A DNA stretch of 64,000 bases from Candidatus Binataceae bacterium (GTDB lineage Bacteria > Desulfobacterota > Binatia > Binatales > Binataceae), in NCBI GenBank assembly GCA_035524375.1, contig DATKOZ010000059.1, positions 28,822 to 92,821 on the forward strand, given 5' to 3'. How positions within the stretch are numbered: position 1 is the stretch's first letter; every line of letters begins with the position of its first letter. This document shows, in pieces, positions 40,276-58,298 of this stretch. The position numbers were made by a program, and so were the translations under genes. The notes beneath the pieces were generated by a model. That model did not search any database, was not told where the DNA came from, and saw only the letters and a program-made list of their open reading frames with translations.

Positions 40276-40426
40276 TCTGCCCTGACATACCACCCGCGCT
40301 GCCGGGTAAAGCAGCCCGGATTTCCGGGCGCGCCGATAGCTGATAATTTCATAGACGCCACCGATGCGCATGTTCACGCGGATTTCATATTGATCCGATG
40401 GACTTTTACCTCCGCGCCGGCGGTTG

Positions 40427-42496
40427 ATGACGCGCATACGCTTACAGATGGTATCCGAATTCGCCAAGCCGGCCCCTGCCGAACCGCCCCCGGAGCCACC
40501 CCCCCCTGCGCGGCCGGGCGGACATCCGCCGACAATTCTCGACGACGAACGCTTCGCTATCATCGCAGTAATGGCCGTAACCGCGATCGTCTACGCGCGA
40601 TGCGTCGGCTTCGACTTTGTGCTTGACGATCGGATGTGGGTAAACAGCCGGTTCATAGGCGATTGGTCGTTCGCGTGGCAATCGATCATTCACGATTCAT
40701 GGTGGTTCCACGACCCCGGACACCTCCCGCAGAGCCCGTACTACCGCCCGCTGCAGGGGATTCTTGCCACGGTCATCTTTCACCTGTTCGGCGCCAATCC
40801 GGCGGGATGGCATTCTGTAATGATCGCCCTGCATCTGCTGGTTGCGTGGTTTGCGTATCGCGCAGCGCGCCTGCTTACCGGAAATGGGCGCACCGCGATG
40901 CTTGCGGCTGCGATGTATGCGCTGATGCCGCAGCAGGCCCAATCGGTTATCTGGTCCACGGTCACCGACATGCCCATGAACGCGGCATTCGAATTGGCGG
41001 CATTTGGCCTTTATCTGCAATGCCGCATCGACCAGAGCGAAGACAAACCTTCACTGCGCTATCTTCTCCTCTCGCTTGGATTCTTCGCCGCTGCGTTGCT
41101 CAGCTACGACAGCGCAGTGACCTTCCCGGCGCTAATCGCCGCCCACGCCCTGATTTTCCCGAGCCAGAATGCCAGCGAAAGCGAGGGACTGAAGGTCCGA
41201 GTACGAACGGGGATTTCAGCGATGCTCCCCTATGCTTTCGTACTCGCCGCATACCTTGCGATCAAACTCGTACTGCTCGGATTCATCAGCCAACCGTTTT
41301 TGCACAACGACATGACGGCATGGGAACTGATCCTGACGATTCCAGGCGCGATGTGGGCATACGCGATGCTGCTGATTATGCCGTGGCGGGCGGAACCAGC
41401 GGCGCATGGCCTTGCGATAGCGAGAGGTGTCGCTGATCCGGAGTTTCTGATGCCTGCCGGGGGGCTGGCCCTTCTTTGCGCCGCGCCCTACCTAGTTCTC
41501 CGCAACCACCCACATCGCCGCCTTTACCTGTTTTGCGCTGCATGGACATTGATAGCACTTGCACCTGCACTCAACTTGCGCGGGTTGCGGGCGGATCTCC
41601 TTTTCGCCGATCGATACCTCTACCTGCCCGCATTTGGATTCTGTGTGATGGTGGCCGATCTTGCCGTTACCTTCGCCAATACCGGACGCGTTCAGGCGCA
41701 AATGGTCGCAATAGGGGCAACTGCCGTTGTGCTCTTGTACGCGGCGCTGCTGTTTCACGACGAAGGTTACTGGCGGGAGGATTATGCCCTCTATTCGCAT
41801 AGCGTGGAGAAATTCCCGGAAATCGGCATCTGGCATAGCCGGTTGGGATTGATTCTCTCTGCGCGTGGTGATTTCACCAACGCGCGCCGCGAATTGGAAA
41901 TCGGGACATCGAAGGATCCCGACACCGACGGCAATGCGCTGTATGGTTTGGGACTGGTCGACGAAATGCTCGGCGACCGGAAGGCGGCGCTGGAAGTAAT
42001 GGAACGGGGGTTCCGCCGCTTCGACCATCCGCCGCTTATCGCATACACGGAACTCGCAATCGCCCGTGACGCTGCCGGCGATGCAAAAGGTGCAAATGAA
42101 GCGCTGGCTGATGCCGCCAAACAACCGGGCGGCGCCAATGCGGCCGATCTGGCGCGTGCGAAACTGATGTTCGTGCATGATGACGCGAAGGGCTCGGAAG
42201 CCACCTTGCGCGATCTGCTGCGGCGCGATCCGAATTACGCACCCGGATGGATTTTCCTCGGCACCGTGCTGGCATCAGAGCAAAAGTACGACGACGCGCT
42301 CGGCGCATTTCGTCATGCATCGTCGCTGGTACCGTACGACCCAACTCTTCACTATCAGGCCGCCGTGATTCTCCATAATTTGAAGCGCGATCATGAAGCG
42401 CACGACGAATGCACGGCCGCGCTTGCACAGTCGCCAAACGATCCCAAAGCACGGGCACTGATGGCCGCAATCGAACAGAGTAAGGCAGCTCGTTAG
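40427..42496 (+). CDS. Paralog P7: GT-C-like membrane domain plus full TPR domain
   Basis: 'FDFVLDDRMWVNS', 'HDSWWFHDPGHLPQSPYYRP', 'IFHLFGANPAGWH', and the TPR tail '...HYQAAVILHNLKRDHEAHDECTAALAQSPNDPKARALMAAIE'. The N-terminus is Pro-rich. The start is ATG 40427 (TTG 40424 in the ORF track). Confidence 0.8.
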   Translation: MTRIRLQMVSEFAKPAPAEPPPEPPPPARPGGHPPTILDDERFAIIAVMAVTAIVYARCVGFDFVLDDRMWVNSRFIGDWSFAWQSIIHDSWWFHDPGHLPQSPYYRPLQGILATVIFHLFGANPAGWHSVMIALHLLVAWFAYRAARLLTGNGRTAMLAAAMYALMPQQAQSVIWSTVTDMPMNAAFELAAFGLYLQCRIDQSEDKPSLRYLLLSLGFFAAALLSYDSAVTFPALIAAHALIFPSQNASESEGLKVRVRTGISAMLPYAFVLAAYLAIKLVLLGFISQPFLHNDMTAWELILTIPGAMWAYAMLLIMPWRAEPAAHGLAIARGVADPEFLMPAGGLALLCAAPYLVLRNHPHRRLYLFCAAWTLIALAPALNLRGLRADLLFADRYLYLPAFGFCVMVADLAVTFANTGRVQAQMVAIGATAVVLLYAALLFHDEGYWREDYALYSHSVEKFPEIGIWHSRLGLILSARGDFTNARRELEIGTSKDPDTDGNALYGLGLVDEMLGDRKAALEVMERGFRRFDHPPLIAYTELAIARDAAGDAKGANEALADAAKQPGGANAADLARAKLMFVHDDAKGSEATLRDLLRRDPNYAPGWIFLGTVLASEQKYDDALGAFRHASSLVPYDPTLHYQAAVILHNLKRDHEAHDECTAALAQSPNDPKARALMAAIEQSKAAR

Positions 42497-42497
42497 G

Positions 42498-44552
42498 ATG
42501 GCTGAGACAGCACAAATCGCTGCCAATCCACCGGACAGCAAGCCGGCTTCCGGATTCGCCTTGTGGTTGCTTGGCGGCGGCTCCCCGCCGCGAGCGGGAA
42601 TCGCCGCGGTTCTGCTTGCCACCGCGTTCGTCTACTCACGATGCCTTGGTAACGATTTCGTATTCGACGATCGCGAGGAGATCGTCTTCAATCCGTACAT
42701 CGGGAACTGGTCATTTGTCGCAAAGTCCCTGTTCAGCGATGCTTGGTGGTTCCGCGATCCACTGCATCAAAGCCGCTACTACCGCCCGCTTATGAACGTA
42801 TGGCTGTGGCTCAATTATCACCTGTTTGGATTGAATCCCGCAGGGTGGCATGCCGCGATGATCGCATTACATCTGGTTGCGGTATGGCTGGCATTCCGGG
42901 TCGCTACCTTGCTGAGCGGTGACCGCTGGATCGGCCTCTTCGCGGCAGCTCTGTTCGGATTGATGCCGATTCATGCGCAGGCAGTCGTGTGGCCTGCCGC
43001 AATCGCACCGCTGATGTGCGGGACATTTGAACTCGCGTCGCTTGAATACTTTCTATGCGCGTTTGGCTTGCCCGAATCCGACGGACGCCGCACTCGACTG
43101 TCAGCGATCTCAATTGGGCTATTTGCCGGAGCACTGCTCAGCTACGACAGCTCAATTGCGTTTCCATTCATAATCGCCGCGTACTGCTTCATTCGCCCAC
43201 ACGAGCCAGCCGACGGAGCACACGTACCGCAAGGTCAAGCTGGTACCGTGACAGATCGCATCCGTGATACGGCGAACGCAACCGCTCCATACATTGTCGT
43301 TCTGGTCGGGTATCTCCTCCTGCGGCTCTGGGCGCTAAATTTTATTTTCCGCCCGCACATGCACAACCATATGACGCTCGCGGAAATTGCGCTTACGATT
43401 CCCGGCGCGATCGCGGGCTACGCAATGGCATTTGTGGTGCCATGGATGGCCGGCCCGGCGCAGCGGTTGAATATCGTAACGGGCATCGCGGACCAGGGGT
43501 TCTATTTCCCGGTTCTCGGCCTGTCGATTCTTTGCGGCGCCGCCTTTTTATTGATTCGTAGCAATCGGCGCCGCCTTCTATACCTGTTTTATGCAGCGTT
43601 CATCTTAATTGCGTTGGGCCCAATGCTGAATCTGCGAGCATTCCAGGATCAACTGGCGATCCAGGATCGCTACGCATACTTTGCATCATTCGGATTTTGC
43701 ATGTTCCTTGCCGACTATGCCGTCTCGTTTGCGCGACGGAACGATCGATTGGCACCGGTGGTTTGGATCGGTGCAACTGGGATTACGCTACTCTATGCGG
43801 GAACACTTTTTTGGGTGCAACAATTCTGGCACGACGATCTCGCGCTGTTTCAGCGCTGCGTAGATGTCGTTCCGGATGCGGGAACGTGGCATAGCCGGCT
43901 GGGGCTGGTGCTGGAAGCCCGTGGCGATTATCGCGGTGCGCGAAGCGAATTGGAGACTGCGGACCGCCTCGATAAATTCACCGAAGGTGTCGTACTCCAC
44001 GATTTGAGTCTGGTTGACGAACATTTAAACGATCCGGCCGCAGCGGCACGCGTTATGGCGAAGGCGGTTGAACGTGCGGAAGACCCGCCGCCGGTGGCAT
44101 ACACGGACCTGGCGATCGCGCGGGAAGCTGCCGGCGACTCAGCGGGCGCGGAGGAAGCGCTCAAGCACGCCGCCGCAATGCCCGGTGGGGCAAATGTAGC
44201 AGAGCTGGCTCACGCGCAAATCCGTTTGATGCATGGCGATGCCAAAGGCACCGAGGATGCCGTGCGAGAACTGCTAAAACACGCCCCTGATTATGTCGCC
44301 GCGCTCAATGTCCTTGGTGCTGTACTTTCATCGGAGCACCGCTACGACGAAGCGCTACAGGTGTATCGCCACGGGGCAACGGTCGTGCCGACCGACTCGG
44401 ATTTGCATTATCGAATCGCCCTGATACTCCACAAACTCGGGCGCGACGGCGAGGCGTATCCGGAATGTTCGGCTGCGCTTGCGGGCGCGCCGCAGGATCC
44501 GAAGATGCTGTCGCTGATGGCTGAAATCAAACGTGGCCCCGGTGCGCACTAG
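42498..44552 (+). CDS. Paralog P8: GT-C-like membrane domain plus full TPR domain
   Basis: 'NDFVFDDREEIVFN', 'SDAWWFRDPLHQSRYYRP', 'NYHLFGLNPAGWH' and the tail 'HYRIALILHKLGRDGEAYPECSAAL'. The junction with P7 is TAG-G-ATG. Confidence 0.85.
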   Translation: MAETAQIAANPPDSKPASGFALWLLGGGSPPRAGIAAVLLATAFVYSRCLGNDFVFDDREEIVFNPYIGNWSFVAKSLFSDAWWFRDPLHQSRYYRPLMNVWLWLNYHLFGLNPAGWHAAMIALHLVAVWLAFRVATLLSGDRWIGLFAAALFGLMPIHAQAVVWPAAIAPLMCGTFELASLEYFLCAFGLPESDGRRTRLSAISIGLFAGALLSYDSSIAFPFIIAAYCFIRPHEPADGAHVPQGQAGTVTDRIRDTANATAPYIVVLVGYLLLRLWALNFIFRPHMHNHMTLAEIALTIPGAIAGYAMAFVVPWMAGPAQRLNIVTGIADQGFYFPVLGLSILCGAAFLLIRSNRRRLLYLFYAAFILIALGPMLNLRAFQDQLAIQDRYAYFASFGFCMFLADYAVSFARRNDRLAPVVWIGATGITLLYAGTLFWVQQFWHDDLALFQRCVDVVPDAGTWHSRLGLVLEARGDYRGARSELETADRLDKFTEGVVLHDLSLVDEHLNDPAAAARVMAKAVERAEDPPPVAYTDLAIAREAAGDSAGAEEALKHAAAMPGGANVAELAHAQIRLMHGDAKGTEDAVRELLKHAPDYVAALNVLGAVLSSEHRYDEALQVYRHGATVVPTDSDLHYRIALILHKLGRDGEAYPECSAALAGAPQDPKMLSLMAEIKRGPGAH

Positions 44553-44553
44553 G

Positions 44554-46596
44554 ATGCCGGCGAACGACAATACCGCTGCCAAGACATCGGCGCGCGAGGC
44601 CGGATTCCGTTCGGAAATCTCGTGGTTTAACGGCGAATCGGCACCGCGAGTGTGGCTTGGCGCACTGCTGATCGTCGCTGGACTCATATACAGCCGATGC
44701 CTTTCGCACGAATTTGTTCTCGACGATTACGACTGGGCGAACAATCGCTACATAGGAGATTGGTCTTTCATCTGGAAATCGTTCGTAAGCGACGCGTGGT
44801 GGTATCTCGATCCCGCGCACCCGCCCCAGAGCTCGTACTACCGGCCGATGCTGGATGTGTGGGCGGCGCTCAACTTCCACCTGTTCGGCGTCAATCCGTT
44901 TGAGTGGCATCTCGCGATGGTCGCGATTTCGCTGCTCGTAGTCTGGCAGGCGTTTCGCATCGCAAACCTGCTGACCGGTAATGCGTGGACTGCGCTACTG
45001 TGCGCGGCATTGTTCGCGTTGATGCCGGGCCATGCGGAATCGATCGTATGGCCCTCGGCGATTTGCCAGCCGCTCTACGCGGCATTTGTGCTCGGCTCGT
45101 TTGAATTCCATTTGCGCCTCAGAGATGTTCCGGTTGGCGATCCGCGCCATCTGCGATGGCTGGTTATATCGATGGCGTTGTTCGCGGGAGCGCTGTTGAC
45201 CTACGAACCGGCCGCGCTCTTCCCGCTTCTGATCGTGCTGCACGGCTACTTGTTTCCTAACGAGGCGTCCAAAGGCGCGCCCGCACAGCCCGCGTCCGAA
45301 CTATGGAAAATAATATTCGACGCAGTATTCCCGTACGTAGTGCTGACGATCGCCTACCTGCTGCTTCGATTCTGGGTGCTTGGATTCATCAGCCGGCCCT
45401 ATTTGGTCAAACACGTGACCGGACTGGAAAGCATTCTGACGATGCCATACGCGCTTGCGATTTACTTGATGATCATGGCGATTCCAACGATGGCCGGGCC
45501 GGCGCATCGGCTGGATGCTGTCGAAAGTCTCGCCGCTCCCGGATTCTATCTGCCGCTGCTAGGCCTGATAATTCTGTTTGGCACCGGCTTTTTCCTCCTG
45601 CGAAGCCATCCGCATCGGCGGTTGTATGTGTTTTGCATGGCATGGATTCTGATCGCATTTGCGCCGATGCTGAACCTCCAAGGATTGTTCGCGGAGAGCC
45701 TGATTCAGGATCGCTATTTGTATTTCCCGTCGTTTGGGCTGTGCCTGATGGCGGCCGACCTTGCGGTAGGTTTCGGCGATAACAGTCCGGCCCGGTCACA
45801 AGCGATCTGGACGGCATCCGCCGTCGCGCTCGCAATAAGCGCCCTCCTGCTTTTTTCTGTCGAACGATTCTGGCACGACGACATCGCGCTCTATGAGCAG
45901 TGCATCGTCGCGACACCCGATGTCGGCATTTGGCACTATCGATTGGGCCGCGCGCTCGCCGCACGCGGAAACCTGAAAGAAGCGCGCCAGCAGCTTGAAA
46001 GGACCGTCGCGCTCGAACCGAACGCGGGCGGAAACATACTGTTCGATCTCGGCCTGATAGAAGAGAAACTTGGGGACCGAACTGCTGCGGAACGCGAAAT
46101 GTCCGAAGGATTGAAACGGTTCGCAAATCCGCCGCTGGTCGCATACCGCGATGTCGCCATTGCAGCCGATGCCGCCGGCGACTACAAAGGCGCCGAGGCG
46201 GTGCTTAAGCAGGCCGAGGCACAGGATGGCGGCGTTGAAATGGCCGCCATGACCCGCGCGCAAATCCTGTCGATCCACGGCAATCGCGCCGGTGCGGAGG
46301 CCGCGCTCAGGGAGCTACTGCGGCGTAATCCCGACAATGCGCAAGCGCTCGCCGCGCTTGGGACAACGCTGTCATCCGACGGTCACTTGGACGATGCCCT
46401 CGACGCTTACCGCCACGCATCGCTGCTGGAGCCGCATGATTCGAACCTGCATTATCGAATCGCACTGACTCTTCATAAATTGGGCCGCAATCGCGAGGCT
46501 CATGACGAGTGCGCGCTCGCGCTCTCCAGCATGCCCAGCGACCCGAATGTGCGAGCGCTGATGGCCGAGCTTGAGCATGCCGGCGCGCCCGACTGA
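44554..46596 (+). CDS. Paralog P9: GT-C-like membrane domain plus full TPR domain
   Basis: 'HEFVLDDYDWANN', 'SDAWWYLDPAHPPQSSYYRP', 'NFHLFGVNPFEWH' and the tail 'HYRIALTLHKLGRNREAHDECALAL'. I prefer ATG 44554, which gives the same TAG-G-ATG junction as P7/P8, over the GTG at 44533. Confidence 0.8.
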   Translation: MPANDNTAAKTSAREAGFRSEISWFNGESAPRVWLGALLIVAGLIYSRCLSHEFVLDDYDWANNRYIGDWSFIWKSFVSDAWWYLDPAHPPQSSYYRPMLDVWAALNFHLFGVNPFEWHLAMVAISLLVVWQAFRIANLLTGNAWTALLCAALFALMPGHAESIVWPSAICQPLYAAFVLGSFEFHLRLRDVPVGDPRHLRWLVISMALFAGALLTYEPAALFPLLIVLHGYLFPNEASKGAPAQPASELWKIIFDAVFPYVVLTIAYLLLRFWVLGFISRPYLVKHVTGLESILTMPYALAIYLMIMAIPTMAGPAHRLDAVESLAAPGFYLPLLGLIILFGTGFFLLRSHPHRRLYVFCMAWILIAFAPMLNLQGLFAESLIQDRYLYFPSFGLCLMAADLAVGFGDNSPARSQAIWTASAVALAISALLLFSVERFWHDDIALYEQCIVATPDVGIWHYRLGRALAARGNLKEARQQLERTVALEPNAGGNILFDLGLIEEKLGDRTAAEREMSEGLKRFANPPLVAYRDVAIAADAAGDYKGAEAVLKQAEAQDGGVEMAAMTRAQILSIHGNRAGAEAALRELLRRNPDNAQALAALGTTLSSDGHLDDALDAYRHASLLEPHDSNLHYRIALTLHKLGRNREAHDECALALSSMPSDPNVRALMAELEHAGAPD

Positions 46597-46597
46597 A

Positions 46598-48553
46598 ATG
46601 CCCGAGCGGGGAAAATCCACAGCCCCAGACACTTGGCTGCTTGCGATTCTGATCGCGACCGCGCTGATTTACCTTCGATGTCTGTCCAACGAATTCGTGT
46701 TCGACGACTACTACATGATCCTTGCCAACCGCTACATCGGCGATTGGTCGTTCTTTTGGAAATCGCTGGTCAACGACGCGTACTGGTCGACCGATCCGCT
46801 GCACGTTCCCGTCAGTTCATATTATCGCCCGATCAAGGACGTATGGTTCGCAATCAATATCCATCTCTTCGGACGCCATCCCGCGGGATGGCATGCCGCG
46901 ATGATTGCCCTGCATCTTTTCGTCGTATGGCTCGTTTATCGCGTCGCAGCGGAACTGACTCGGGACCATTTCGCCGCTCTATTCGCCGCCGGGATATTCG
47001 CCCTGATGCCGTCGCACGCCGAGACTGTCGTCTATCCCGCGGCGATCGCTCAGCCGCTATGCGCGGCATTCGAATCGGCGGCTTTTCTTGTTTTTCTCAG
47101 ACAAAATGACGAAGACGTTTCCGGGCGGCATCGCCTTGCATTCTCATTATTGCTGTATGCAGGCGCACTACTCAGTTATGAAGGCGCGATAACGTTTCCG
47201 GCCCTTATCGCTGCTTACGTCTATATCTTTCGTCTCTCATCATCTAACGAAAGAATGAATCACGGCGCGCTCGCCGCAGCGATGCCCTACGCACTCATGG
47301 TCATCCCGTATCTCGTTATTCGATATTGGGTACTTGGATTCATTACCCGGCCAAATCCGCAAAATCCCGTACCGATGACTGGGATTGAGGCGTTTCTTAC
47401 AATCCCCGGCGCAATTGCGGCTTATCTCAAACTGCTCGTAGTCCCTTGGCGGGCGGGGCCGGCTTACCGGCTCGATGTCGTCACCAGCATCACCTCGCCG
47501 GGTTTCTATCTTTCAGTCGCGGTGCTAGCGGTAATTTGCGCCGCTGCAATTTGGCTCTTCAGACGCAATCCGCGGCGCAATCTGTACCTGTTCTGTGTGG
47601 CTTGGTTCTTCATCGCGATTGCGCCTGCTCTCAATTTATCAGGTCTCTTTTCCGAAATATTGATTCAGGATCGCTACCTCTACCTGGCATCGATCGCGTT
47701 CTGCGTGATGGCAGCCGATATCGCGATCGATATCGCACGGCGCGGTGAACGATGGTCGCAAGCAGTCTGGGCTGTCGGCCTATGCGGCGTAGCTGCATTC
47801 GCATCCGCCCTCTTTGTAGTGCAGGGCTATTGGCATGACGATGCAACACTGTTCGCGCAATGCGCGGAGGTTTCGCCAGCCTCGGAGTTTTGGCATTACC
47901 GGCTTGGCGTAACGATGATGGCCCAAGGACAAAACGCGAAGGCGCTTCCGGAGCTCGAAAGCGCGGTACGGCTCGCGCCCAATTATGTGGCCGCGCGGTA
48001 CCAACTCGCACAGGTTTATGACGCGCTCGGTGATCGCGCCGGGTTCGCACGCGCGACCGCCGATTGGGTCAAGTCATTCAAGCATCCGCCGCTTGAGGCA
48101 TATACCGCCCTTGCCACCGCCGATGACGCTGCCGGCGACGCGAAGGGCGCAGACGACGCACTTAAGAATGCCGAAGTGCTGCCGGGCGGGATCGACGCTG
48201 CAGCCCTGACCCGCGCGCAATTGATGCTGCGCCATGGAGACAGCAAGCGCGCGGATGCGGCGCTACAGCCGATGTTGAAGCGCGAGCCGGACGATCCGGC
48301 GGTGCTTGCGACCTACGGGCTGGTCCTTGCAGCCGAGCATCGCTACGACGAAGCGATTGCGACAATGCGCCGGGCGGCGGAGCTATCCCCACCCGCGCCG
48401 ATGACTCATTACCGGATCGCGATACTGCTGCATCAGTTGGGCCGCGATCGCGAGGCGCGCGATGAGTGCGCAATCACGCTTGCCGCCGCGCCGGCGGCGC
48501 GCAGCGCGCAAGAGTTGATGGCCGATATCGAGCGAAGCGAAGGCGTCCGATAA
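46598..48553 (+). CDS. Paralog P10: GT-C-like membrane domain plus full TPR domain
   Basis: 'NEFVFDDYYMILAN', 'NDAYWSTDPLHVPVSSYYRP', 'NIHLFGRHPAGWH' and the tail 'HYRIAILLHQLGRDREARDECAITL'. I prefer ATG 46598 (TGA-A-ATG junction) over the TTG at 46571. Confidence 0.8.
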   Translation: MPERGKSTAPDTWLLAILIATALIYLRCLSNEFVFDDYYMILANRYIGDWSFFWKSLVNDAYWSTDPLHVPVSSYYRPIKDVWFAINIHLFGRHPAGWHAAMIALHLFVVWLVYRVAAELTRDHFAALFAAGIFALMPSHAETVVYPAAIAQPLCAAFESAAFLVFLRQNDEDVSGRHRLAFSLLLYAGALLSYEGAITFPALIAAYVYIFRLSSSNERMNHGALAAAMPYALMVIPYLVIRYWVLGFITRPNPQNPVPMTGIEAFLTIPGAIAAYLKLLVVPWRAGPAYRLDVVTSITSPGFYLSVAVLAVICAAAIWLFRRNPRRNLYLFCVAWFFIAIAPALNLSGLFSEILIQDRYLYLASIAFCVMAADIAIDIARRGERWSQAVWAVGLCGVAAFASALFVVQGYWHDDATLFAQCAEVSPASEFWHYRLGVTMMAQGQNAKALPELESAVRLAPNYVAARYQLAQVYDALGDRAGFARATADWVKSFKHPPLEAYTALATADDAAGDAKGADDALKNAEVLPGGIDAAALTRAQLMLRHGDSKRADAALQPMLKREPDDPAVLATYGLVLAAEHRYDEAIATMRRAAELSPPAPMTHYRIAILLHQLGRDREARDECAITLAAAPAARSAQELMADIERSEGVR

Positions 48554-49517: not shown

Positions 49518-50294
49518 TCAACCCGTGAATGCCGGGGATTGGCCGCCGTCGATGATGAGTGTCGCGCCGGTAATAAAACCGGCTGCTTCGGAAGCCAGAA
49601 ATATGCACGGGTAGGCAATTTCTTCGACTCGGCCAAAGCGGCCCAGCGCACGCGTTCGCGCAACCGCGTTCTTGACCTCAGGATTCGGCCATACGCGCGG
49701 CGCGGCCCCCTCCGTGTCGATCGGTCCGGGCGCAATGCAATTAACACGGATCCCCATGCCGCCCCATTCACTGGCCTGCGAAGTCGTGAGCATAATCACG
49801 CCGGCCTTGGACGCGGAGTACGGCAGCATAAACGCCGAACCGTGAATTCCGGCCGTCGATGAAATATTTACGATCGACCCGGGGCTGTTCTGCGCGATGA
49901 ACTGGCGGGCAGCCGCCCGGGCGCAGAAAAATACACCGTCAAGATTAATTCCAACCACTGCGCGCCATGCGTTCGGCGACAGATTCATGCTGGGCGCGGC
50001 AATGCTTGCGCCATGATTGTTGATCAGCACCTCAAGGCGGCCGAAATGCTTGACCGTCTCGGCCACCATATTGTCGCATTGCGCGGCGTCGCGGACGTCG
50101 ACCTGCGCCATCTCGCACTTGCCGCCGGACTTGCGAATTTCGTCGCGCACGCGCTCCAGGTTCTCGACCTTGCGGCTGGCAATCAGTACCGGCGCGCCCT
50201 GCGCGGCAAATTCCTTGGCGATCGATTCGCCGATTCCGGTTCCGCCGCCAGTCACGATCGTGACCTTGCCCTCAACACTGAATGGATTTTTCAT
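49518..50294 (-). CDS. SDR-family oxidoreductase
   Basis: 'KVTIVTGGGTGIGESIA' Rossmann motif, 'NNHG', catalytic 'YSASKAG', and 'PGPIDT'. Confidence 0.9.
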   Translation of the reverse strand: MKNPFSVEGKVTIVTGGGTGIGESIAKEFAAQGAPVLIASRKVENLERVRDEIRKSGGKCEMAQVDVRDAAQCDNMVAETVKHFGRLEVLINNHGASIAAPSMNLSPNAWRAVVGINLDGVFFCARAAARQFIAQNSPGSIVNISSTAGIHGSAFMLPYSASKAGVIMLTTSQASEWGGMGIRVNCIAPGPIDTEGAAPRVWPNPEVKNAVARTRALGRFGRVEEIAYPCIFLASEAAGFITGATLIIDGGQSPAFTG

Positions 50295-50330
50295 TCCGGC
50301 CTCCTTCCTCGAATAATCGAACGCCGCCGA

Positions 50331-50828
50331 TCACGGCAATTGCGACGCATCCAGCCGCAACAGTGCGTCGCGTGCCTGCTCCTGGGGCGCGCCGATGGTC
50401 CCGTTGGTGGGATTGGCCGCCACCCGGTAATGCTCGACGGCACGCTGCTTGTCACCGATTGCCTCGTAAGCACGGGCCACGTTTACTTCCGCCTGCGCAT
50501 CACCGGGGCACGCAGTCAGCGCGTCCTGGTAGTATCCAAGCGCTCCGGCAAAATCGCCCGCGGCAAAACGATCGCCGCCGCTGCGAGTCGCTATCGCCTG
50601 GACACTGCGATCGCATCCACCCGGAGGCGGCGAAACCCCGGGGACGTAGTTGTTGCTCTGTGTGGCCTGCAACCCCTCGATTTGGCGCTGCATCCGTTCA
50701 ATTTCGACCTGCTGCTCCTTCAACATCTGGTTGTTGGCGTCAATAGCCGAGTCCTGGCATCCAGCAACTGTGAAAAGCAGGAGTCCAAACAACGGTGCCG
50801 CCGAAAACTTAAAGATGGTGGTGCGCAT
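50331..50828 (-). CDS. Lipoprotein with a coiled-coil segment and a TPR-like C-terminus
   Basis: Lipobox 'LLLFTVAGC' follows ATG 50828. 'MLKEQQVEIERMQRQIEGLQ' is the coiled-coil segment. 'FAAGDFAGALGYYQDALTACPGDAQAEVNVARAYEAIGDKQRAVEHY' is TPR-like. The ORF-track start at 51158 is an extension. Confidence 0.7.
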   Translation of the reverse strand: MRTTIFKFSAAPLFGLLLFTVAGCQDSAIDANNQMLKEQQVEIERMQRQIEGLQATQSNNYVPGVSPPPGGCDRSVQAIATRSGGDRFAAGDFAGALGYYQDALTACPGDAQAEVNVARAYEAIGDKQRAVEHYRVAANPTNGTIGAPQEQARDALLRLDASQLP

Positions 50829-50945
50829 CGCTCCCATACTGCCGCATCGGAATCCGGTGTCAACAACATTTGCGGTATGGAATGGGCTTTCATCTCTGCT
50901 ATTGTGCTCGGAAATTTGCGGCAGCATGGAGCGGAGACAACCAAA

Positions 50946-51614
50946 ATGAATCAAATGCGAAGATTCGCGATTCTTGTGTGTACCGCAATATTGGTCTGCG
51001 CAAGCGCCGCCCTTGCCGCGGACCACGGCGGGGCATCCGTAAGCGCCGCGCAAGCGCTGCAAGAGCTTCTGGACGGCAACCAGCGGTTTATTGCCGGCAA
51101 AATGGAGCATCCCCACCAGACGCCCGCACGGCGCACCGCGGTTGCAAAGGGGCAGCATCCATTCGCTGCGATTCTCTCCTGTTCTGATTCGCGCACCGCG
51201 CCCGAGGTGCTTTTCGATCGCGGACTAGGCGATCTATTCGTGGTGCGGGTGGCCGGAAATGTCGCCGATCAGGTCGTAATCGAAAGCCTGGATTACTCGG
51301 TAAAGCACCTTGGAGTGCGAGTGGTGATGATATTGGGCCACACCCGATGCGGTGCGGTAACGGCCGCTGTCGAAGGTCACGAAGAACCCGGCGATGTCGG
51401 CCCGATGCTGGAGGAGTTGAAACCTGCTGTCGCTGCGACCAAGGGAATGCCCGGCGATCCGGTCGAAAACGCGGTGCGCGAGAATGTGAAGCTGATCGTT
51501 GCGAAGCTGGCTGGATCGCCGGAGCTTACCGGGATGGTCAAATCAGGCGAGCTTAGGATCGTCGGCGGCGTGTACGATCTATCCACCGGGAAAATCGAGA
51601 TGCTGCGCGATTGA
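50946..51614 (+). CDS. Beta-class carbonic anhydrase with signal peptide
   Basis: 'AAILSCSDSRTAPEVLFD' and 'MILGHTRCGAV' are the zinc-ligand motifs. The N-terminus MNQMRRFAILVCTAILVCASAALAA is signal-like. Only the last third of the 533-aa ORF 50013..51614 is real. Confidence 0.9.
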   Translation: MNQMRRFAILVCTAILVCASAALAADHGGASVSAAQALQELLDGNQRFIAGKMEHPHQTPARRTAVAKGQHPFAAILSCSDSRTAPEVLFDRGLGDLFVVRVAGNVADQVVIESLDYSVKHLGVRVVMILGHTRCGAVTAAVEGHEEPGDVGPMLEELKPAVAATKGMPGDPVENAVRENVKLIVAKLAGSPELTGMVKSGELRIVGGVYDLSTGKIEMLRD

Positions 51615-52047: not shown

Positions 52048-52389
52048 CTAACCGCGGACCAGAAAGTCGGTCAGGTCCATGGCGAATACGCCGTCGCTCA
52101 ATTGCATCGACTTGGCCGTGCGTTTTATCACCATTTTCGAGATGTCTTGCTCCGGCGGAAGGACGAAGATGACGTCGCCGGTCTCCAGCGCAAAGATGCG
52201 AATCCGCTCCTCCCCGCGCCGTTCGACGCCGCCGACGTCGTACGGACTCACCGTAAAGGCATAGCCGCGAGCGCGGATGATGGTCGCATCGCAGGCCTCG
52301 ACGATGCCCACAAAGATGCGCAGGTTGTCATCTTTGAAGCCCTTTTTCTCGACCATTACGATCCGGTCGTTTTCACGCAATGCGGCCAT
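52048..52389 (-). CDS. Hypothetical 113-aa protein downstream of the giant TPR-PIN gene
   Basis: The ORF has an ATG start and lies 36 nt after the stop of 52426..56262. The composition looks beta-rich. I recognise no motif. Confidence 0.5.
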   Translation of the reverse strand: MAALRENDRIVMVEKKGFKDDNLRIFVGIVEACDATIIRARGYAFTVSPYDVGGVERRGEERIRIFALETGDVIFVLPPEQDISKMVIKRTAKSMQLSDGVFAMDLTDFLVRG

Positions 52390-52425: not shown

Positions 52426-55400
52426 TCACGGACTCAGCGTCATTTCGCTGGGCGTCTGCCTTGCTGCCTGCGCCATCCATCCGCGCACTACGTCGCTCAA
52501 TTCGCGAGTGCGAATCAGGTCCAGTCCGAAGCGGATCGGAAGCGAGCGCGGCAGCACTTCAACGGCCGCGCGGCCACCCTGGCGGCGTCCGACCTTATCG
52601 AGCAGGCGCAGCGTGACAGCCCGGCGCGACGCTCGCAGATATTGATCGTTGTACATCTTTACGATCAGTTCGGCCACCAGCCCCATCGCATCCGACAGAT
52701 TGATCGTTTCGGAAGCGAATTGTTCGATTGCTTGTTTGAGCGGGAACTGGTCAGGATTCCATACCGCCACCGCTCCCGCGCGCATCAGGTTTTCCACCGA
52801 CGGCGCGCTGAATGCGTAGCCCCATCCGGCCAGCTTGGTGCTGGCGGTTGCCAGTTCCGCTGGGTCGAGCGTGCCAAATTGGGCGCGCGCGGCCAATGCC
52901 GCTTCGGTCCATACGCGGCGAACCCCGAACTCGGTCTTGGCGACGTCGGCCAGGATCAAGTCGTCGGTCCACAGTACGTGGCCGGGCATCGACGCAACTA
53001 CGATGCTTTCAGCCCCGTGGCGCCCAAACAGCCGGACCAGGCTATCGCGCCGCTCCTGATCAATTGAGGCGAGCACTGCGCTGTCGCGTACCCGGCACAC
53101 CGACTGCATCGCATCGGCCAGACCGCGCAATTGAACGTCAACCCGCCTGCCATCCTTGCCTGTCGCGTTAAGCGAGGCTGAAAAACCCGGCGGCAGGCGC
53201 AATAGCGTATCGTCGAAGGCCAGGCGGCGCAGCTCGGCTAGGGTGGCCTGCGAGATCACGAACTGCCGGGGCCAGGTCGGAAGGAGGCTCAGGCGGCCCA
53301 GCATGCACAACGTGGCAATCGCAGTCAGATCGAGTACCACCGCGTTTGCACGCTCGAATGCGCCCAGTGCCGCTGACAATTCCTCCGCCGATCCCGTGCA
53401 GCATTTGATCGGCGCCTCAGGCCGCTGCGCCAGCACGAACATCGTCTGTAGATCGTTGAGATTGATCCGCTCGGCGACCGCATGAATCGGCACAGTCTTG
53501 GCCGCATATACGCGTTCCGCCTGAACCAGCAGATCCTCGCGCCGCGCTCCAGCCACCGATTGCATCGCCACCAACTCTTCCTGAAGCTTGGCCGCAGTGA
53601 TCGACTCGGTATGCGGCAGCTTCGACAGCTCCAGTTCAGGCTGGCCCGGGAATCGCGCCTGCCAGTTGATAACCACGTCCATGTAGCGGAACGAATACTT
53701 GCTTATGGTTCCCTTGATCGTGGCCTGCTTGCGGTTGGGCAATTGGAACTTCTCGCCGGTCTTTTTACCCTTTAACGTCTTGGCCATCGTGGAGTTGGGC
53801 CCGTACTCTTCGACCGCTTCATCGGGATCCGGCGCGTCCTCCAGCACCACCCAGCGATCCGTGTTCGAACCTTCCTCGGCGAAGCACACCGCCGCTCCGG
53901 GCGCGGCGCTTTCGAAGTCAGGCACGTTGGGCATTGCACCAACCGGACCTAGTGCGAACAGAAACGCACGGTGGGTGTCGATATTGGCCCCCTGATGCCG
54001 CAGCATTTCATACGCATACGCCAGCGCATCGTTGGCGCGGCCGCCCTCGCGCATGAGCTGGATCGCCGAGCGGCCGAGCCGGGGCGCGACCTCCCGCGGC
54101 GACGGCATCGCATTCGGATCGGCCACCACGGCTTCGGCGTGACCAAGGCGTGAGGCAACAATCGACCGGCGCAGGGCCAGTTCGCGGTCGTCAGGACGCT
54201 CGCGCAGATGTTCCTCGATCGCGGCCATCGCCGCGTCGGGATCTTCCACTTCGAGCTTGTCGAGCCTGCTGCCGAGGTTGCCATCGGGCGCGTTGGCGGC
54301 AGCGGCTTCGGGATGAAACTGCCGCGTGATTTCAAGAACGATATCCTCGCGGCCAAGGCGGCTCGCGCAATCCAGCAAGCGGCGAGTGTCGGTTCCTCCG
54401 CTGCCAATGGGAGCCAGCGCCTGCCATAGCGGGAGCGCATCGCGGTAGCGGCCGAGATCGTGCAGTAAGGCGGCCAGCTTGCGCCGGCTGTCGGGCGGAG
54501 TCTCGTGAGACAGGCTTGCCAGCGCTTCGTCCGCCAGTTTGGAAGCTTGATCGAATTTCCCCTGCGACAAGCGCAGGCTCGCGCGCAGCGTAAGCAGGGT
54601 GGCCTTGGGCAGGCGCGCCTCGGGAATCGCGGCTAGAAGCGTGTCGGCTTCGTGATAGCGTTCCAAGGTGGCAAGCGCGTCGGTCGCGGCCGCAACCGCA
54701 AACGGGAAGTCGCCCGCCGGAATCGCGCCAGGGCGAGGAATCGCACGGATCAGCAGATCCGCGGCGGCCTGCAAATCACCGGGTTCGTCGCGCTCACGCA
54801 GGGTGACAGCCAAATGATACTCGGTATCTTCGCGCCCACCGACCGCGGCTGCGCGGCGCAACACGTCGATCGCTTCCGACAGGCTGCCGCGGGCACGCAG
54901 AACGATGCCGTACTCGGTCAATCCGTTGGCATCCTCGCGCTCGAGACCGTGGGCATCCTCGATGTCCTTGCCGGCGCCGTCGGCGTCGCGCAACGCGATA
55001 CGCGCCTGCGCGCGGCCGATCAGCGATTGAACCTGATGCGGGGCCGACGCTTCCGCCTGCGCCAAAGTTAGCGCCTGTGTGAAGCAGCTTTCCGCCTCGC
55101 GCACGCGCGTCAGATCATCCTGCGGCGGAGCTTCGCTGGCGCCGGCGCCGCCGATCGCGAGTTCTCCCAAGAGAACCGCCTGGCCCAGCACGAGCCATGC
55201 AACCGAACTGTTCGGAAGCGCGGTGCTGGCAAGGCGGGCATAAAATTCAGCGCGCTCGAAATTTCCGCCGCCCAAAAGCCGGCGCGCCATCACGGTCGCG
55301 ACTTCCGGATCGTTGGCCAACTCGGCGCTGACGTTTTCCTCCAGTTGCGATGGGCTCATATTGGAGGGAGCGTTGTTGAGCCACAATGCGAAGGCGCGTC

Positions 55401-56262
55401 CGCTGGACGGGAACTGCATCCGCATCTTGTCCGCCAGGCTGAATGCGCGCTCGCGCTCGTTCAGCAATTCATGGGCAAGCACTTCATTGGTGCAGGCGTT
55501 CTCGTCGTCGGCTTGCAGCGATTTGGCCGCGATAAACAGCATCGCCGCCTTGCGCGGCTCGCCCTCCTGAAGCCATGCGGTTCCAAGATATGAAAGGACG
55601 CGGAACTTGTTTTGATTCGACAGCTCGCCCCACTTCAGTTCGCGCAGCCGGAGCAGTCCCAAGCGCGCCAACTGGGGTTGATGAGCATCCAGATAAGCCG
55701 CTGCGCCCGATATTTCTTCGCCCAGAGCGTCAAGCGGCCCACCCGACGCAGGTTCGCATCGCGCCTGCAGGTGCACCGCCGAATCGGAAACCGTAAGCGC
55801 CTGGCGCTTGGCGGAAGTGCCGAAGTCGGTCAGCACCTGCGGATATTCGTCGAGCAGCTCCTCGATGTCCTCCCAAGTCAGGACTTCTATCGCCGCTATT
55901 CCGCCCTGCCGGTTGGCCCGGTTGAGATCGAACAACATCCGCTGCAGGCCCGCCGGCTTGGCGGCCGTGGTCGCAATCACGAAACGCCCAATTGGGAGCT
56001 TCAGGCTTGCGGCGCGGTCGGCGGCGTCTTTGATCTCCGCGGGAGTGAGTCCCGCGCCGGCTTCGCGCAAATCGCATTTGACCGCGGCCAGGCGCGGGCG
56101 TCCGCTGATTTCGATTAGATTTACGCCCTTTTCCAAGCGCTCCGGATCGCGATAGCGCTCGAGTTGAGGGAGTTGCCAATGCCGCCGCAGAAGCTTCAGA
56201 CAGAGACGTTCGAACTCTTCCGCACTTCTGGGCAGCGGATAACCGGGGGCGAGATTTGCCAT
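52426..56262 (-). CDS. 1278-aa multidomain protein: REase(Mrr)-like N-terminus, TPR/helical solenoid, GreA/B-C-terminal-like module, PIN-like nuclease domain
   Basis: ATG is at 56262 (MANLAPGY...). Residues ~14-140 follow the Mrr_cat-like layout. Residues ~200-780 are Ala/Leu/Arg-rich helical repeats. Residues ~786-860, 'GAAVCFAEEGSNTDRWVVLEDAPDPDEAVEEYGPNSTMAKTLKGKKTGEKFQLPN', resemble the GreA C-terminal 'G..V.....G.....Y.IVG..EAD...IS..SPIARGLIGK..GD.V.V..P'. Residues ~973-1125 carry PIN-like acidic positions ('AVVLDLTAI', 'TLAELRRL', 'HVLWTDDLILAD'). I saw no Walker A motif. Confidence 0.75.
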   Translation of the reverse strand: MANLAPGYPLPRSAEEFERLCLKLLRRHWQLPQLERYRDPERLEKGVNLIEISGRPRLAAVKCDLREAGAGLTPAEIKDAADRAASLKLPIGRFVIATTAAKPAGLQRMLFDLNRANRQGGIAAIEVLTWEDIEELLDEYPQVLTDFGTSAKRQALTVSDSAVHLQARCEPASGGPLDALGEEISGAAAYLDAHQPQLARLGLLRLRELKWGELSNQNKFRVLSYLGTAWLQEGEPRKAAMLFIAAKSLQADDENACTNEVLAHELLNERERAFSLADKMRMQFPSSGRAFALWLNNAPSNMSPSQLEENVSAELANDPEVATVMARRLLGGGNFERAEFYARLASTALPNSSVAWLVLGQAVLLGELAIGGAGASEAPPQDDLTRVREAESCFTQALTLAQAEASAPHQVQSLIGRAQARIALRDADGAGKDIEDAHGLEREDANGLTEYGIVLRARGSLSEAIDVLRRAAAVGGREDTEYHLAVTLRERDEPGDLQAAADLLIRAIPRPGAIPAGDFPFAVAAATDALATLERYHEADTLLAAIPEARLPKATLLTLRASLRLSQGKFDQASKLADEALASLSHETPPDSRRKLAALLHDLGRYRDALPLWQALAPIGSGGTDTRRLLDCASRLGREDIVLEITRQFHPEAAAANAPDGNLGSRLDKLEVEDPDAAMAAIEEHLRERPDDRELALRRSIVASRLGHAEAVVADPNAMPSPREVAPRLGRSAIQLMREGGRANDALAYAYEMLRHQGANIDTHRAFLFALGPVGAMPNVPDFESAAPGAAVCFAEEGSNTDRWVVLEDAPDPDEAVEEYGPNSTMAKTLKGKKTGEKFQLPNRKQATIKGTISKYSFRYMDVVINWQARFPGQPELELSKLPHTESITAAKLQEELVAMQSVAGARREDLLVQAERVYAAKTVPIHAVAERINLNDLQTMFVLAQRPEAPIKCCTGSAEELSAALGAFERANAVVLDLTAIATLCMLGRLSLLPTWPRQFVISQATLAELRRLAFDDTLLRLPPGFSASLNATGKDGRRVDVQLRGLADAMQSVCRVRDSAVLASIDQERRDSLVRLFGRHGAESIVVASMPGHVLWTDDLILADVAKTEFGVRRVWTEAALAARAQFGTLDPAELATASTKLAGWGYAFSAPSVENLMRAGAVAVWNPDQFPLKQAIEQFASETINLSDAMGLVAELIVKMYNDQYLRASRRAVTLRLLDKVGRRQGGRAAVEVLPRSLPIRFGLDLIRTRELSDVVRGWMAQAARQTPSEMTLSP

Positions 56263-56331
56263 AGTGTACCAGTACCTAACATATTGAAATAAGAGCCGAA
56301 AGCCCCCGCGCCATCGGATGATTCCGTCGCT

Positions 56332-56359
56332 TTCGCGAACTCGCAACCGCTGGTAAAAT
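56332..56359 (+). promoter_or_regulatory. Candidate sigma70-like promoter of the ABC-F gene
   Basis: TTCGCG (56332-56337), a 16-nt spacer, then TAAAAT (56354-56359), 16 nt before ATG 56376. The -35 box is weak. Confidence 0.25.
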
Positions 56360-56375
56360 CGACGTTTTAATCGTC

Positions 56376-58298
<1,923 letters not shown>

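Follow-up and report, generated by a model that had tools for sequence, protein, structure and literature searches.

The 64,000-nucleotide stretch of contig DATKOZ010000059.1 from a Candidatus Binataceae bacterium (hereafter the window) carries on its minus strand a gene encoding a single protein of 1,278 amino acids (aa), in which a restriction endonuclease (REase)-like head is followed by an array of tetratricopeptide repeats (TPR), a domain of the type found at the C terminus of GreA and GreB (Gre-C), and a PIN domain. A first-pass annotation made by eye from the sequence had proposed these four modules, and all of them proved real according to Pfam, profiles of homologs, and AlphaFold2 (AF2) models searched with Foldseek. 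The coordinates and the length given there were likewise exact, as judged from the open reading frame (ORF), its translation, and the conserved start context, with the ATG at 56260-56262 and the stop codon at 52426-52428. A mechanical ORF list places the start further upstream, at a TTG at position 56346. In an alignment of 11 orthologous upstream regions, a block with the sequence TGTTA-N8-TAC(A/T)(C/A)T abuts the ATG, similarity upstream is weak and decaying, and the context ...TAC(A/T)(C/A)TATGGC... around the start is kept across orthologous loci. Since conservation begins at the block abutting the ATG, the alignment supports this start codon and the 1,278-aa reading. No Shine-Dalgarno-like sequence was seen ahead of the ATG in the same alignment, suggesting that the leader is very short or missing. 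The G+C content of the gene (0.62 to 0.65) is slightly higher than the window average (~0.59).

This architecture belongs to an already catalogued family, the TPR-GreA/B-C-PIN (TGP) system defined by Kaur, Iyer, Burroughs, and Aravind (eLife 2021; PMC8195603), and the window protein is a genuine member of it: it contains a PIN domain of the PF20698 type, a Gre-C domain directly upstream, a TPR array before Gre-C, and a REase fold in the N-terminal slot. The first-pass annotation had named such a family and a Pfam PIN model called after it, and both exist. In the published description, TGP genes are mostly standalone, the constant region is called "rapidly evolving," and 13 N-terminal effector domains are listed, REase included (PMC8195603). 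The REase head is therefore not the further variation that it was first taken for. The published proposal has Gre-C bind RNA polymerase at the beta-prime coiled-coil by the secondary channel and PIN cut the transcript, with the N-terminal effector as a back-up apoptotic arm (PMC8195603); the earlier suggestion of a PIN RNase docked on RNA polymerase agrees with this hypothesis. The accompanying statement that the family lacked experimental characterization is outdated. In Escherichia coli ECOR25, the family member Agp and its partner Bab form an abortive-infection defense against T5 and some other siphoviruses (10.1101/2024.11.07.622273). Two point mutations in the Gre-C domain of Agp that mimic polymerase-binding mutations of GreA abolish defense, and the PIN mutation D762N also leads to its loss, yet the latter destabilizes the protein too; no Bab-independent activity of Agp was seen (10.1101/2024.11.07.622273). 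Among the papers searched, no other experimental work on the TGP family was found, and in two defense-discovery papers the text "GreA" occurred solely as part of "greater" and "greatly."

To describe the domains, we relied on a set of homologs comprising 108 protein clusters, with 24 homologs aligned for Pfam, 58 full-length Binataceae orthologs, and nine distant homologs used for motif comparison. PF20698, described as the "PIN domain associated with the TPR-GreAB-C-PIN system," matched residues 976 to 1109 of the window protein (44.7 bits; gathering score, 27.8) and was found in 24 of the 24 aligned homologs. An AF2 model of residues 765 to 1278 (mean predicted local distance difference test [pLDDT] score of 77.7) was the source of the Foldseek matches for both the PIN and the Gre-C domains. 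For PIN, these were PAE0151 (probability, 0.97), VapC4 (probability, 0.96; target-normalized template modeling [TM] score, 0.64), and the EST1A PIN domain. The acidic residues D978, E1010, and D1100/D1101 lie exactly where they had been placed by eye. D1100 and D1101 are each conserved in 58 of 58 orthologs and D978 in 57, position 1010 is occupied by glutamate in 53, aspartate in 3, and alanine in 2, and T1007 is also kept in 56 of 58. No segment of the protein is better conserved than the helical tail behind the PIN domain (mean pairwise identity, 0.79).

The Gre-C domain, first assigned to residues ~786 to 860, stood as a fold. Its top Foldseek match was GreA (9a7t_B; 73 columns; root mean square deviation [rmsd], 2.2; probability, 1.0), and further matches included the Nitrosomonas GreA/B protein 2pn0, Gfh1, E. 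coli GreA (1grj), GreB (2p4v), and Rnk; GreA, GreB, Gfh1, and Rnk were all matched with a probability of 1.0. What did not hold was a family match in the window sequence itself, where Pfam gave no significant hit to PF01272. Among the homologs, six of 24 matched this family, one of them (P0067) above the gathering score (27.8 versus 26.9) at the homologous position, and one homolog carries the NCBI name "Transcription elongation factor, GreA/GreB family." The Gre signature is kept (consensus ...SPM.K.L.GKR.GDKFQL), with the hallmark (S/H)P..(L/V)xGK.xG(D/E)xF conserved and G789, W804, E808, and F839 invariant among the 58 orthologs. An hhalign comparison of the Gre-segment profile with a single E. 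coli GreA sequence, used for residue mapping only, gave the expected register with a probability of only 6%; it pairs S824 and L830 with GreA S124 and L130. GreA_GreB_N was not matched in the window protein, and Gre-C is preceded by the TPR array and not by a coiled-coil finger.

Profile matches to TPR families in the window protein and its homologs combined span residues ~218 to 769, and this array is the presumed sensor or scaffold. Neither a family match to an NTPase nor a Walker A motif was found in the window protein, which confirms the earlier remark that it lacks a P-loop/STAND NTPase.

The head was recognized from structure. When profiles built from the N-terminal and Gre-like segments were searched against PDB sequences, the matches did not rise above chance (AcrID1, E of 0.62; 3kwr, E of 0.84), and structure prediction was needed. 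No Pfam family matched within the head of the window protein, for which the gathering scores of Mrr_cat and Mrr_cat_2 were not reached; in two distant homologs, Mrr_cat_2 scored 21.0 and 18.9 bits, just below the cutoff of 22. In an AF2 model of residues 1 to 190, the core of the head reached a pLDDT of ~85 to 90, and Foldseek matched it in the PDB to MspJI (E of 3e-4), EcoO109I, EcoT38I, Can2, Cap4, Card1, and Hjc. The N-terminal nuclease of Avs4 (8dgf_B) superposed with an rmsd of 3.5 over 138 columns (query-normalized TM score, 0.51), the lowest rmsd among the top-ranked matches. The Mrr-like alpha-beta-beta-beta-alpha-beta core, as seen in MspJI, Avs4, EcoO109I, EcoT38I, and Hjc, is thus present. 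The Mrr-type layout that had been read into the N-terminal ~130 aa is borne out as a fold but not as a Pfam match or a canonical motif.

Where the catalytic motif D...(D/E/Q)xK is expected, the window protein has N48 and K62-C63-D64. Among the 58 orthologs, position 48 is N in 34, H in 12, D in 11, and T in 1; position 62 is K in 36, R in 21, and L in 1; and position 64 is D in 40, E in 17, and A in 1, whereas the distant homologs have D, Q, and K or R at these three positions, respectively. The canonical Mrr motif D...QxK is accordingly replaced by (N/H/D)...(K/R)-C-(D/E) in 58 of 58 full-length Binataceae orthologs, while all nine distant homologs retain G(V/I)D...AAQC(K/R). This replacement across the Binataceae orthologs is a new finding. 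The glutamate of helix 1 (E18) is also variable among the orthologs, and the residue type is invariant at E51 and in the acid/base pair of positions 62 and 64. In view of the lost motif, the nuclease apparently is disabled in the Binataceae lineage. Despite the replacement, the head shows a mean identity of 75% across orthologs and a low ratio of nonsynonymous to synonymous substitution rates (dN/dS of 0.078), and it is therefore maintained, most likely in a noncatalytic role. The coordinates of these features are given in Table 1.

Table 1. Features of the TGP gene and its immediate surroundings in the window
Feature	Residues	Position	Strand	Basis
Whole gene, REase-TPR-GreA/B-C-PIN (TGP family)		52426..56262	-	ORF, homologs, start-codon context
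REase fold (PD-(D/E)xK, Mrr/Avs4-like)	10-145	55828..56235	-	AF2 and Foldseek, motif comparison
Altered catalytic position N48	48	56119-56121	-	Motif comparison
Altered catalytic positions K62-C63-D64	62-64	56071-56079	-	Motif comparison
Linker, poorly conserved	146-195	55678..55827	-	pLDDT <50 at 148-177; mean pairwise identity 0.61
TPR-type helical repeat array	196-760	53983..55677	-	TPR_14, TPR_2, TPR_1, ANAPC3, and TPR_12 matches
GreA/GreB C-terminal-type globular domain	786-870	53653..53907	-	Foldseek, PF01272 in homologs, hhalign register
Helical linker, Gre-C to PIN, least conserved	871-972	53347..53652	-	AF2 secondary structure; mean pairwise identity 0.60
PIN domain, PF20698 type	973-1125	52888..53346	-	Pfam, Foldseek, residue conservation
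PIN residue D978	978	53329-53331	-	
PIN residue T1007	1007		-	
PIN residue E1010	1010	53233-53235	-	
PIN residues D1100-D1101	1100-1101	52960-52965	-	
All-helical C-terminal tail	1126-1278	52429..52887	-	AF2 secondary structure; no Pfam match
Divergent intergenic region shared with ABC-F gene, 113 bp		56263..56375	.	Alignment of 11 orthologous intergenic regions
ABC-F gene		56376-58298	+	NF000355
113-aa gene		52048-52389	-	

The homologs with the canonical motif deserve a remark of their own. Seven REase-TGP loci (L004, L069, L071, L072, and L075 to L077), hosted by Acidobacteriota (Bryobacterales, Terriglobia) and other Binatia, closely resemble one another over the N-terminal 140 aa of the match (NMRKSHNRPRNEQDFE.LCL.LLRA.W.CPEL...), and such close likeness across phyla suggests recent horizontal transfer of the canonical-motif clade.

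Nearly all of the 108 homologous clusters are full length (~1,260 to 1,310 aa), belong to Candidatus Binatus or Binataceae, and share 49 to 80% identity with the window protein. In species-representative genomes, scanning turned up 75 loci, ~66 of them of the Binataceae type; the remaining ones show 28 to 35% identity and come from Acidobacteriota, one planctomycete, and other Binatia. At essentially every Binataceae locus (~66 loci), a divergent ABC-F gene lies ~110 bp upstream and a same-strand gene for a 113-aa protein lies downstream, with acyl-CoA dehydrogenase, TonB, PKD, and carbonic anhydrase genes nearby, and these neighbors accompany none of the distant homologs. In several long-read metagenome-assembled genomes, the TGP ortholog is split into at least two tblastn pieces or truncated (L038, L048, L059, and L073; P0083 has 1,043 aa), which may reflect frameshift assembly errors or occasional pseudogenization.

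We then compared the selection regime of the TGP gene with that of its neighbors, using the Nei-Gojobori method; the TGP values come from 21 non-overlapping ortholog pairs and those of each neighbor gene from 17. The dN/dS of the whole TGP gene was 0.095, compared with 0.096 for the ABC-F gene and 0.111 for the 113-aa gene. By domain, it was 0.106 for the TPR array, 0.097 for Gre-C, 0.059 for PIN, and 0.066 for the C-terminal tail, in addition to the value given above for the head.

Presence and absence of the gene were sampled through ABC-F orthologs, so that the presence of TGP was not presupposed, and nine metagenomic loci were informative. The TGP gene was present in six of these and absent from three (L091, L086, and L090). 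L091 is a clean empty site that comprises ABC-F, the 113-aa gene, an alpha/beta-hydrolase, PKD, and GH57, with flanks as in occupied loci; in L086, the ABC-F and 113-aa genes are 184 bp apart with no TGP gene between them, and in L090, the locus is rearranged. As related genomes have a clean empty site, the gene is dispensable. In a neighbor-joining tree of ABC-F, L091 was basal to all TGP-bearing genomes, and L086 and L090 were nested among them, a placement that is weak because the tree was built without bootstrap. The simplest reading of this pattern is one insertion followed by long vertical inheritance and occasional loss: the gene would have been inserted once between the ABC-F and 113-aa genes in the ancestor of a large Binataceae clade and would thereafter have been kept by purifying selection, with losses now and then. 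Homologs that behave as uniformly distributed housekeeping genes had been named beforehand as an argument against a conflict system. The TGP gene is indeed conserved and syntenic, but it is not universal, given the empty sites in relatives, and with three of nine ABC-F-anchored loci devoid of it, a uniform phyletic distribution of the housekeeping type was rejected as originally formulated. Stable inheritance at a single chromosomal site across a bacterial family, combined with an apparently disabled DNA-cutting head, is the one unusual trait of this copy. The fixed position between the ABC-F and 113-aa genes, the dN/dS level shared with ABC-F, and the empty site in relatives are new findings as well.

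The surroundings of the gene differ between the Binataceae and the distant relatives. No mobile or defense genes were found within 6 to 10 kb of the TGP gene, and a tblastn search against phage genomes gave no match. In contrast, a distant relative with 33% identity (P0106) is surrounded by transposases, an integrase, an N6/N4 methyltransferase, a ParE/Phd pair, and a resolvase. A check of gene neighborhoods, suggested at first to see whether homologs sit in defense islands, thus gave a divided answer: distant relatives occur in defense or mobile contexts, but the Binataceae locus is not a defense island. We also came across an unannotated 1,322-aa TGP protein (PF20698, 85.5 bits) on the Sinorhizobium meliloti conjugative plasmid pC (NZ_CP141215.1, 153372-172391; L080), whose N-terminal 220 aa match no family. 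Its gene is embedded in a plasmid defense island, between Gabija-like genes, Shedu, ThiF/MPN genes, and an antitoxin.

Comparison with known systems places the window protein among the TGP systems and sets it apart from several others. It shares with published TGP systems (PMC8195603) the core order of TPR, Gre-C, and PF20698 PIN, the variable N-terminal slot, and the organization as a single gene with no dedicated partner. Unlike in those systems, the canonical nuclease motif of the Binataceae head is replaced, and the gene is inherited vertically at one syntenic site under strong purifying selection, is not "rapidly evolving," and does not belong to a defense island. The TPR-GreA/B-C-PIN core is also common to Agp of the ECOR25 Bab/Agp pair, whose S628 and L634 would correspond, by alignment, to S824 and L830 of the window protein. 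Agp, however, is a 1,094-aa protein from a prophage defense island; it has a short amyloid motif (BASS11) at its N terminus and passes its signal to Bab, the adjacent Bell-domain killer, whereas the window protein has a REase-fold head in that place and no Bell-type partner. With the REase fold already beginning near residue 10, an N-terminal amyloid motif finds no room, although no search aimed at BASS11 itself was made, and the adjacent 113-aa gene matches no family.

Avs4 (PDB 8dgf) resembles the window protein in layout, with a long sensor of helical repeats behind a nuclease head. It differs in its STAND ATPase, its active D...QxK nuclease, and its sensing of the phage portal protein; the window protein has a noncanonical nuclease motif, no P-loop NTPase between effector and repeats, and the Gre-C and PIN domains that Avs4 lacks. 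With GreA, GreB, Gfh1, and Rnk, the likeness lies in a globular C-terminal domain of the same fold and signature motif. The N-terminal coiled-coil finger with its acidic tip is missing from the window protein, in which the C-terminal domain alone is present, embedded in 1,278 aa, and it therefore cannot stimulate transcript cleavage in the Gre manner. Finally, the PIN fold and its quartet-like set of acidic residues (D, E, D, D) recall VapC toxins. In the window, however, the PIN domain belongs to the distinct PF20698 subfamily and is fused to sensor and docking modules, and no VapB-like antitoxin gene is adjacent, the upstream gene being the divergent ABC-F gene and the downstream 113-aa gene not being specific to TGP.

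We favor, with moderate confidence, the reading that the gene encodes a REase-headed TGP conflict protein that acts as a single gene, in which Gre-C would dock on RNA polymerase, the PIN domain would cut RNA, the TPR array would sense or scaffold, and the head would be disarmed. The same C-terminal domain docks GreA, GreB, and Gfh1 on the rim of the secondary channel of RNA polymerase. It is on this rim that Gre-C would anchor the window protein, a placement to which both homology and the Agp mutants point. Given its intact acidic residues, the PIN domain probably is an active RNase and would cut RNA at or near the polymerase, with the TPR array serving for sensing or as a scaffold. For a head without the canonical D...(E/Q)xK motif, a noncatalytic role such as DNA binding, oligomerization, or regulation seems likelier than that of a back-up suicide DNase. 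A function in defense is suggested by the family and by the genomic context of distant relatives. The abortive-infection logic initially attributed to the protein applies to its relative Agp; for the window protein with its putative DNase head, it is poorly supported, considering the motif replaced in 58 of 58 orthologs, the absence of a defense island, the synteny, and a dN/dS at the level of ABC-F.

Several observations weigh against this conflict-protein reading. PADLOC found nothing in the TGP protein and, among its 10 neighbors, gave only generic ABC-ATPase matches, all on the ABC-F gene. Pfam recognized neither Gre-C nor Mrr in the window protein. With a dN/dS of about 0.10 in every domain, the TPR array included, the protein evolves like ABC-F and unlike a rapidly evolving arms-race sensor. 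As for the head, the (K/R)-C-(D/E) swap still places one acidic and one basic residue on a common strand, and these may form a rearranged active site. Lastly, what speaks for polymerase binding by a Gre-C domain outside the Gre factors is a pair of Agp point mutants, an indirect line of evidence.

The alternative that survives best, which we regard as possible but rather unlikely, is exaptation. The Binataceae protein would no longer be part of immunity and would instead be a housekeeping RNA polymerase-associated RNase that clears stalled or backtracked transcripts or takes part in regulated RNA decay, its head being kept as a structural or DNA-contact module. A chromosomal position fixed among housekeeping genes in ~66 species-level genomes, constraint on every domain with an overall dN/dS matching that of ABC-F (0.095 versus 0.096), the lack of mobile or defense genes within 6 to 10 kb together with PADLOC matches confined to ABC-F and generic, and a head that remains 75% identical after its motif was replaced in 58 of 58 orthologs would all be expected under exaptation. 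Nonetheless, the gene is dispensable, with three of nine informative ABC-F-anchored loci lacking it and one clean empty site, known relatives with an informative context all look like defense or mobile cargo, and the only tested family member is a defense protein; lasting retention by purifying selection would fit a stably useful immune gene just as well. Along the same lines, and with equally limited expectation, one may speculate that a TGP immune protein was captured once by a Binataceae ancestor and "institutionalized" at a housekeeping locus over genus-to-family divergence, its suicide DNase head being put out of action by a concerted exchange of charges (Q-x-K to K/R-x-D/E) and yet kept, and that it possibly works as a constitutive polymerase-docked transcript-surveillance RNase and not as an abortive-infection switch. 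If this were true, it would represent a natural conversion of a conflict-system sensor into a core transcription-associated factor.

We consider improbable the canonical two-tier scheme that combines the first-pass annotation with the model of Kaur et al., in which PIN is the first line against phage transcripts and an active REase DNase kills the cell upon failure. At position 48, that of the metal-binding aspartate, N, H, D, and T all occur (N in the window protein), every one of the 58 orthologs has K/R and D/E in place of Q62 and K64, E18 is variable, and D...QC(K/R) is precisely what nine of nine distant homologs have kept, although REase is a listed N-terminal effector class of TGP systems, the head folds like the effector nuclease of Avs4 and is conserved as strongly as the PIN domain, and E51 with the type-invariant pair at 62/64 could form a rearranged active site. 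Very improbable is a Gre-C-like domain representing an FKBP-like fold reused for another partner in a TPR-scaffolded PIN toxin unrelated to transcription, since the missing Pfam Gre match in the window sequence, the hhalign probability of 6%, and the relatedness of the Gre-C fold to FKBP-like domains (PMC8195603) stand against top structural matches to GreA, GreB, Gfh1, and Rnk (probability, 1.0) and not to FKBP isomerases, a PF01272 gathering score passed among homologs, a retained Gre signature (SP..LxGK..GD.F), and the loss of function of Agp upon mutations modeled on polymerase-binding-defective GreA (10.1101/2024.11.07.622273).

The novelty is modest and evolutionary: a gene of a defense family, its effector head remodeled, has become fixed at a housekeeping locus; the family assignment is otherwise ordinary. 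The proposal that TGP proteins sense or attack a hijacked RNA polymerase through Gre-type docking is backed by genetic data for Agp only. The Binataceae set provides ~60 well-aligned full-length orthologs with canonical-motif outgroups, in which PIN, Gre-C, and the tail are constrained and the head is remodeled, and it can guide mutagenesis and points to the indispensable parts of the architecture. It also calls for caution in defense-gene prediction, as a true member of a defense family may lie outside any island, be syntenic across a bacterial family, and evolve like a housekeeping gene.

With regard to the flanking genes, the divergent neighbor encodes a bona fide ABC-F translation factor, which matched NF000355 with 495 bits against a cutoff of 380. 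The PADLOC models "mad3," AriA, GajA, and PtuA also match this protein strongly (up to 180 bits). An assignment as a defense gene ("mad3," AriA, GajA) was rejected, the similarity being generic to ABC proteins and the NCBIfam match being that of an ABC-F translation factor; the ABC-F gene beside TGP is thus a potential source of false-positive defense calls. The spacer between the two genes also contains a conserved GCTG(G/A)TA element that resembles an extended -10 on the ABC-F strand.

On the other side, 36 bp downstream of the TGP gene, the conserved 113-aa gene gave no Pfam, NCBIfam, or PADLOC match. Its product is one of a family of small uncharacterized proteins, whose 229 representative clusters are spread over several other phyla. 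We rejected it as a dedicated, Bab-like partner of TGP, as it is present at TGP-less empty sites, has these 229 clusters elsewhere, and in the neighborhood of one family member occurs without any TGP gene.

Further along the window, a 533-aa ORF (50013-51614, plus strand) has as its only family match a beta-carbonic anhydrase at residues 386 to 528. Its relatives occur in short (~210 to 230 aa) or long (~410 to 480 aa matched) forms, and the ORF has either an over-called start or an uncharacterized N-terminal extension. Finally, four tandem paralogous genes of ~660 to 690 aa each occupy positions 40424-48553 on the plus strand; their products combine an N-terminal polytopic membrane region of ~440 aa, which matches no Pfam family, with a C-terminal TPR block.

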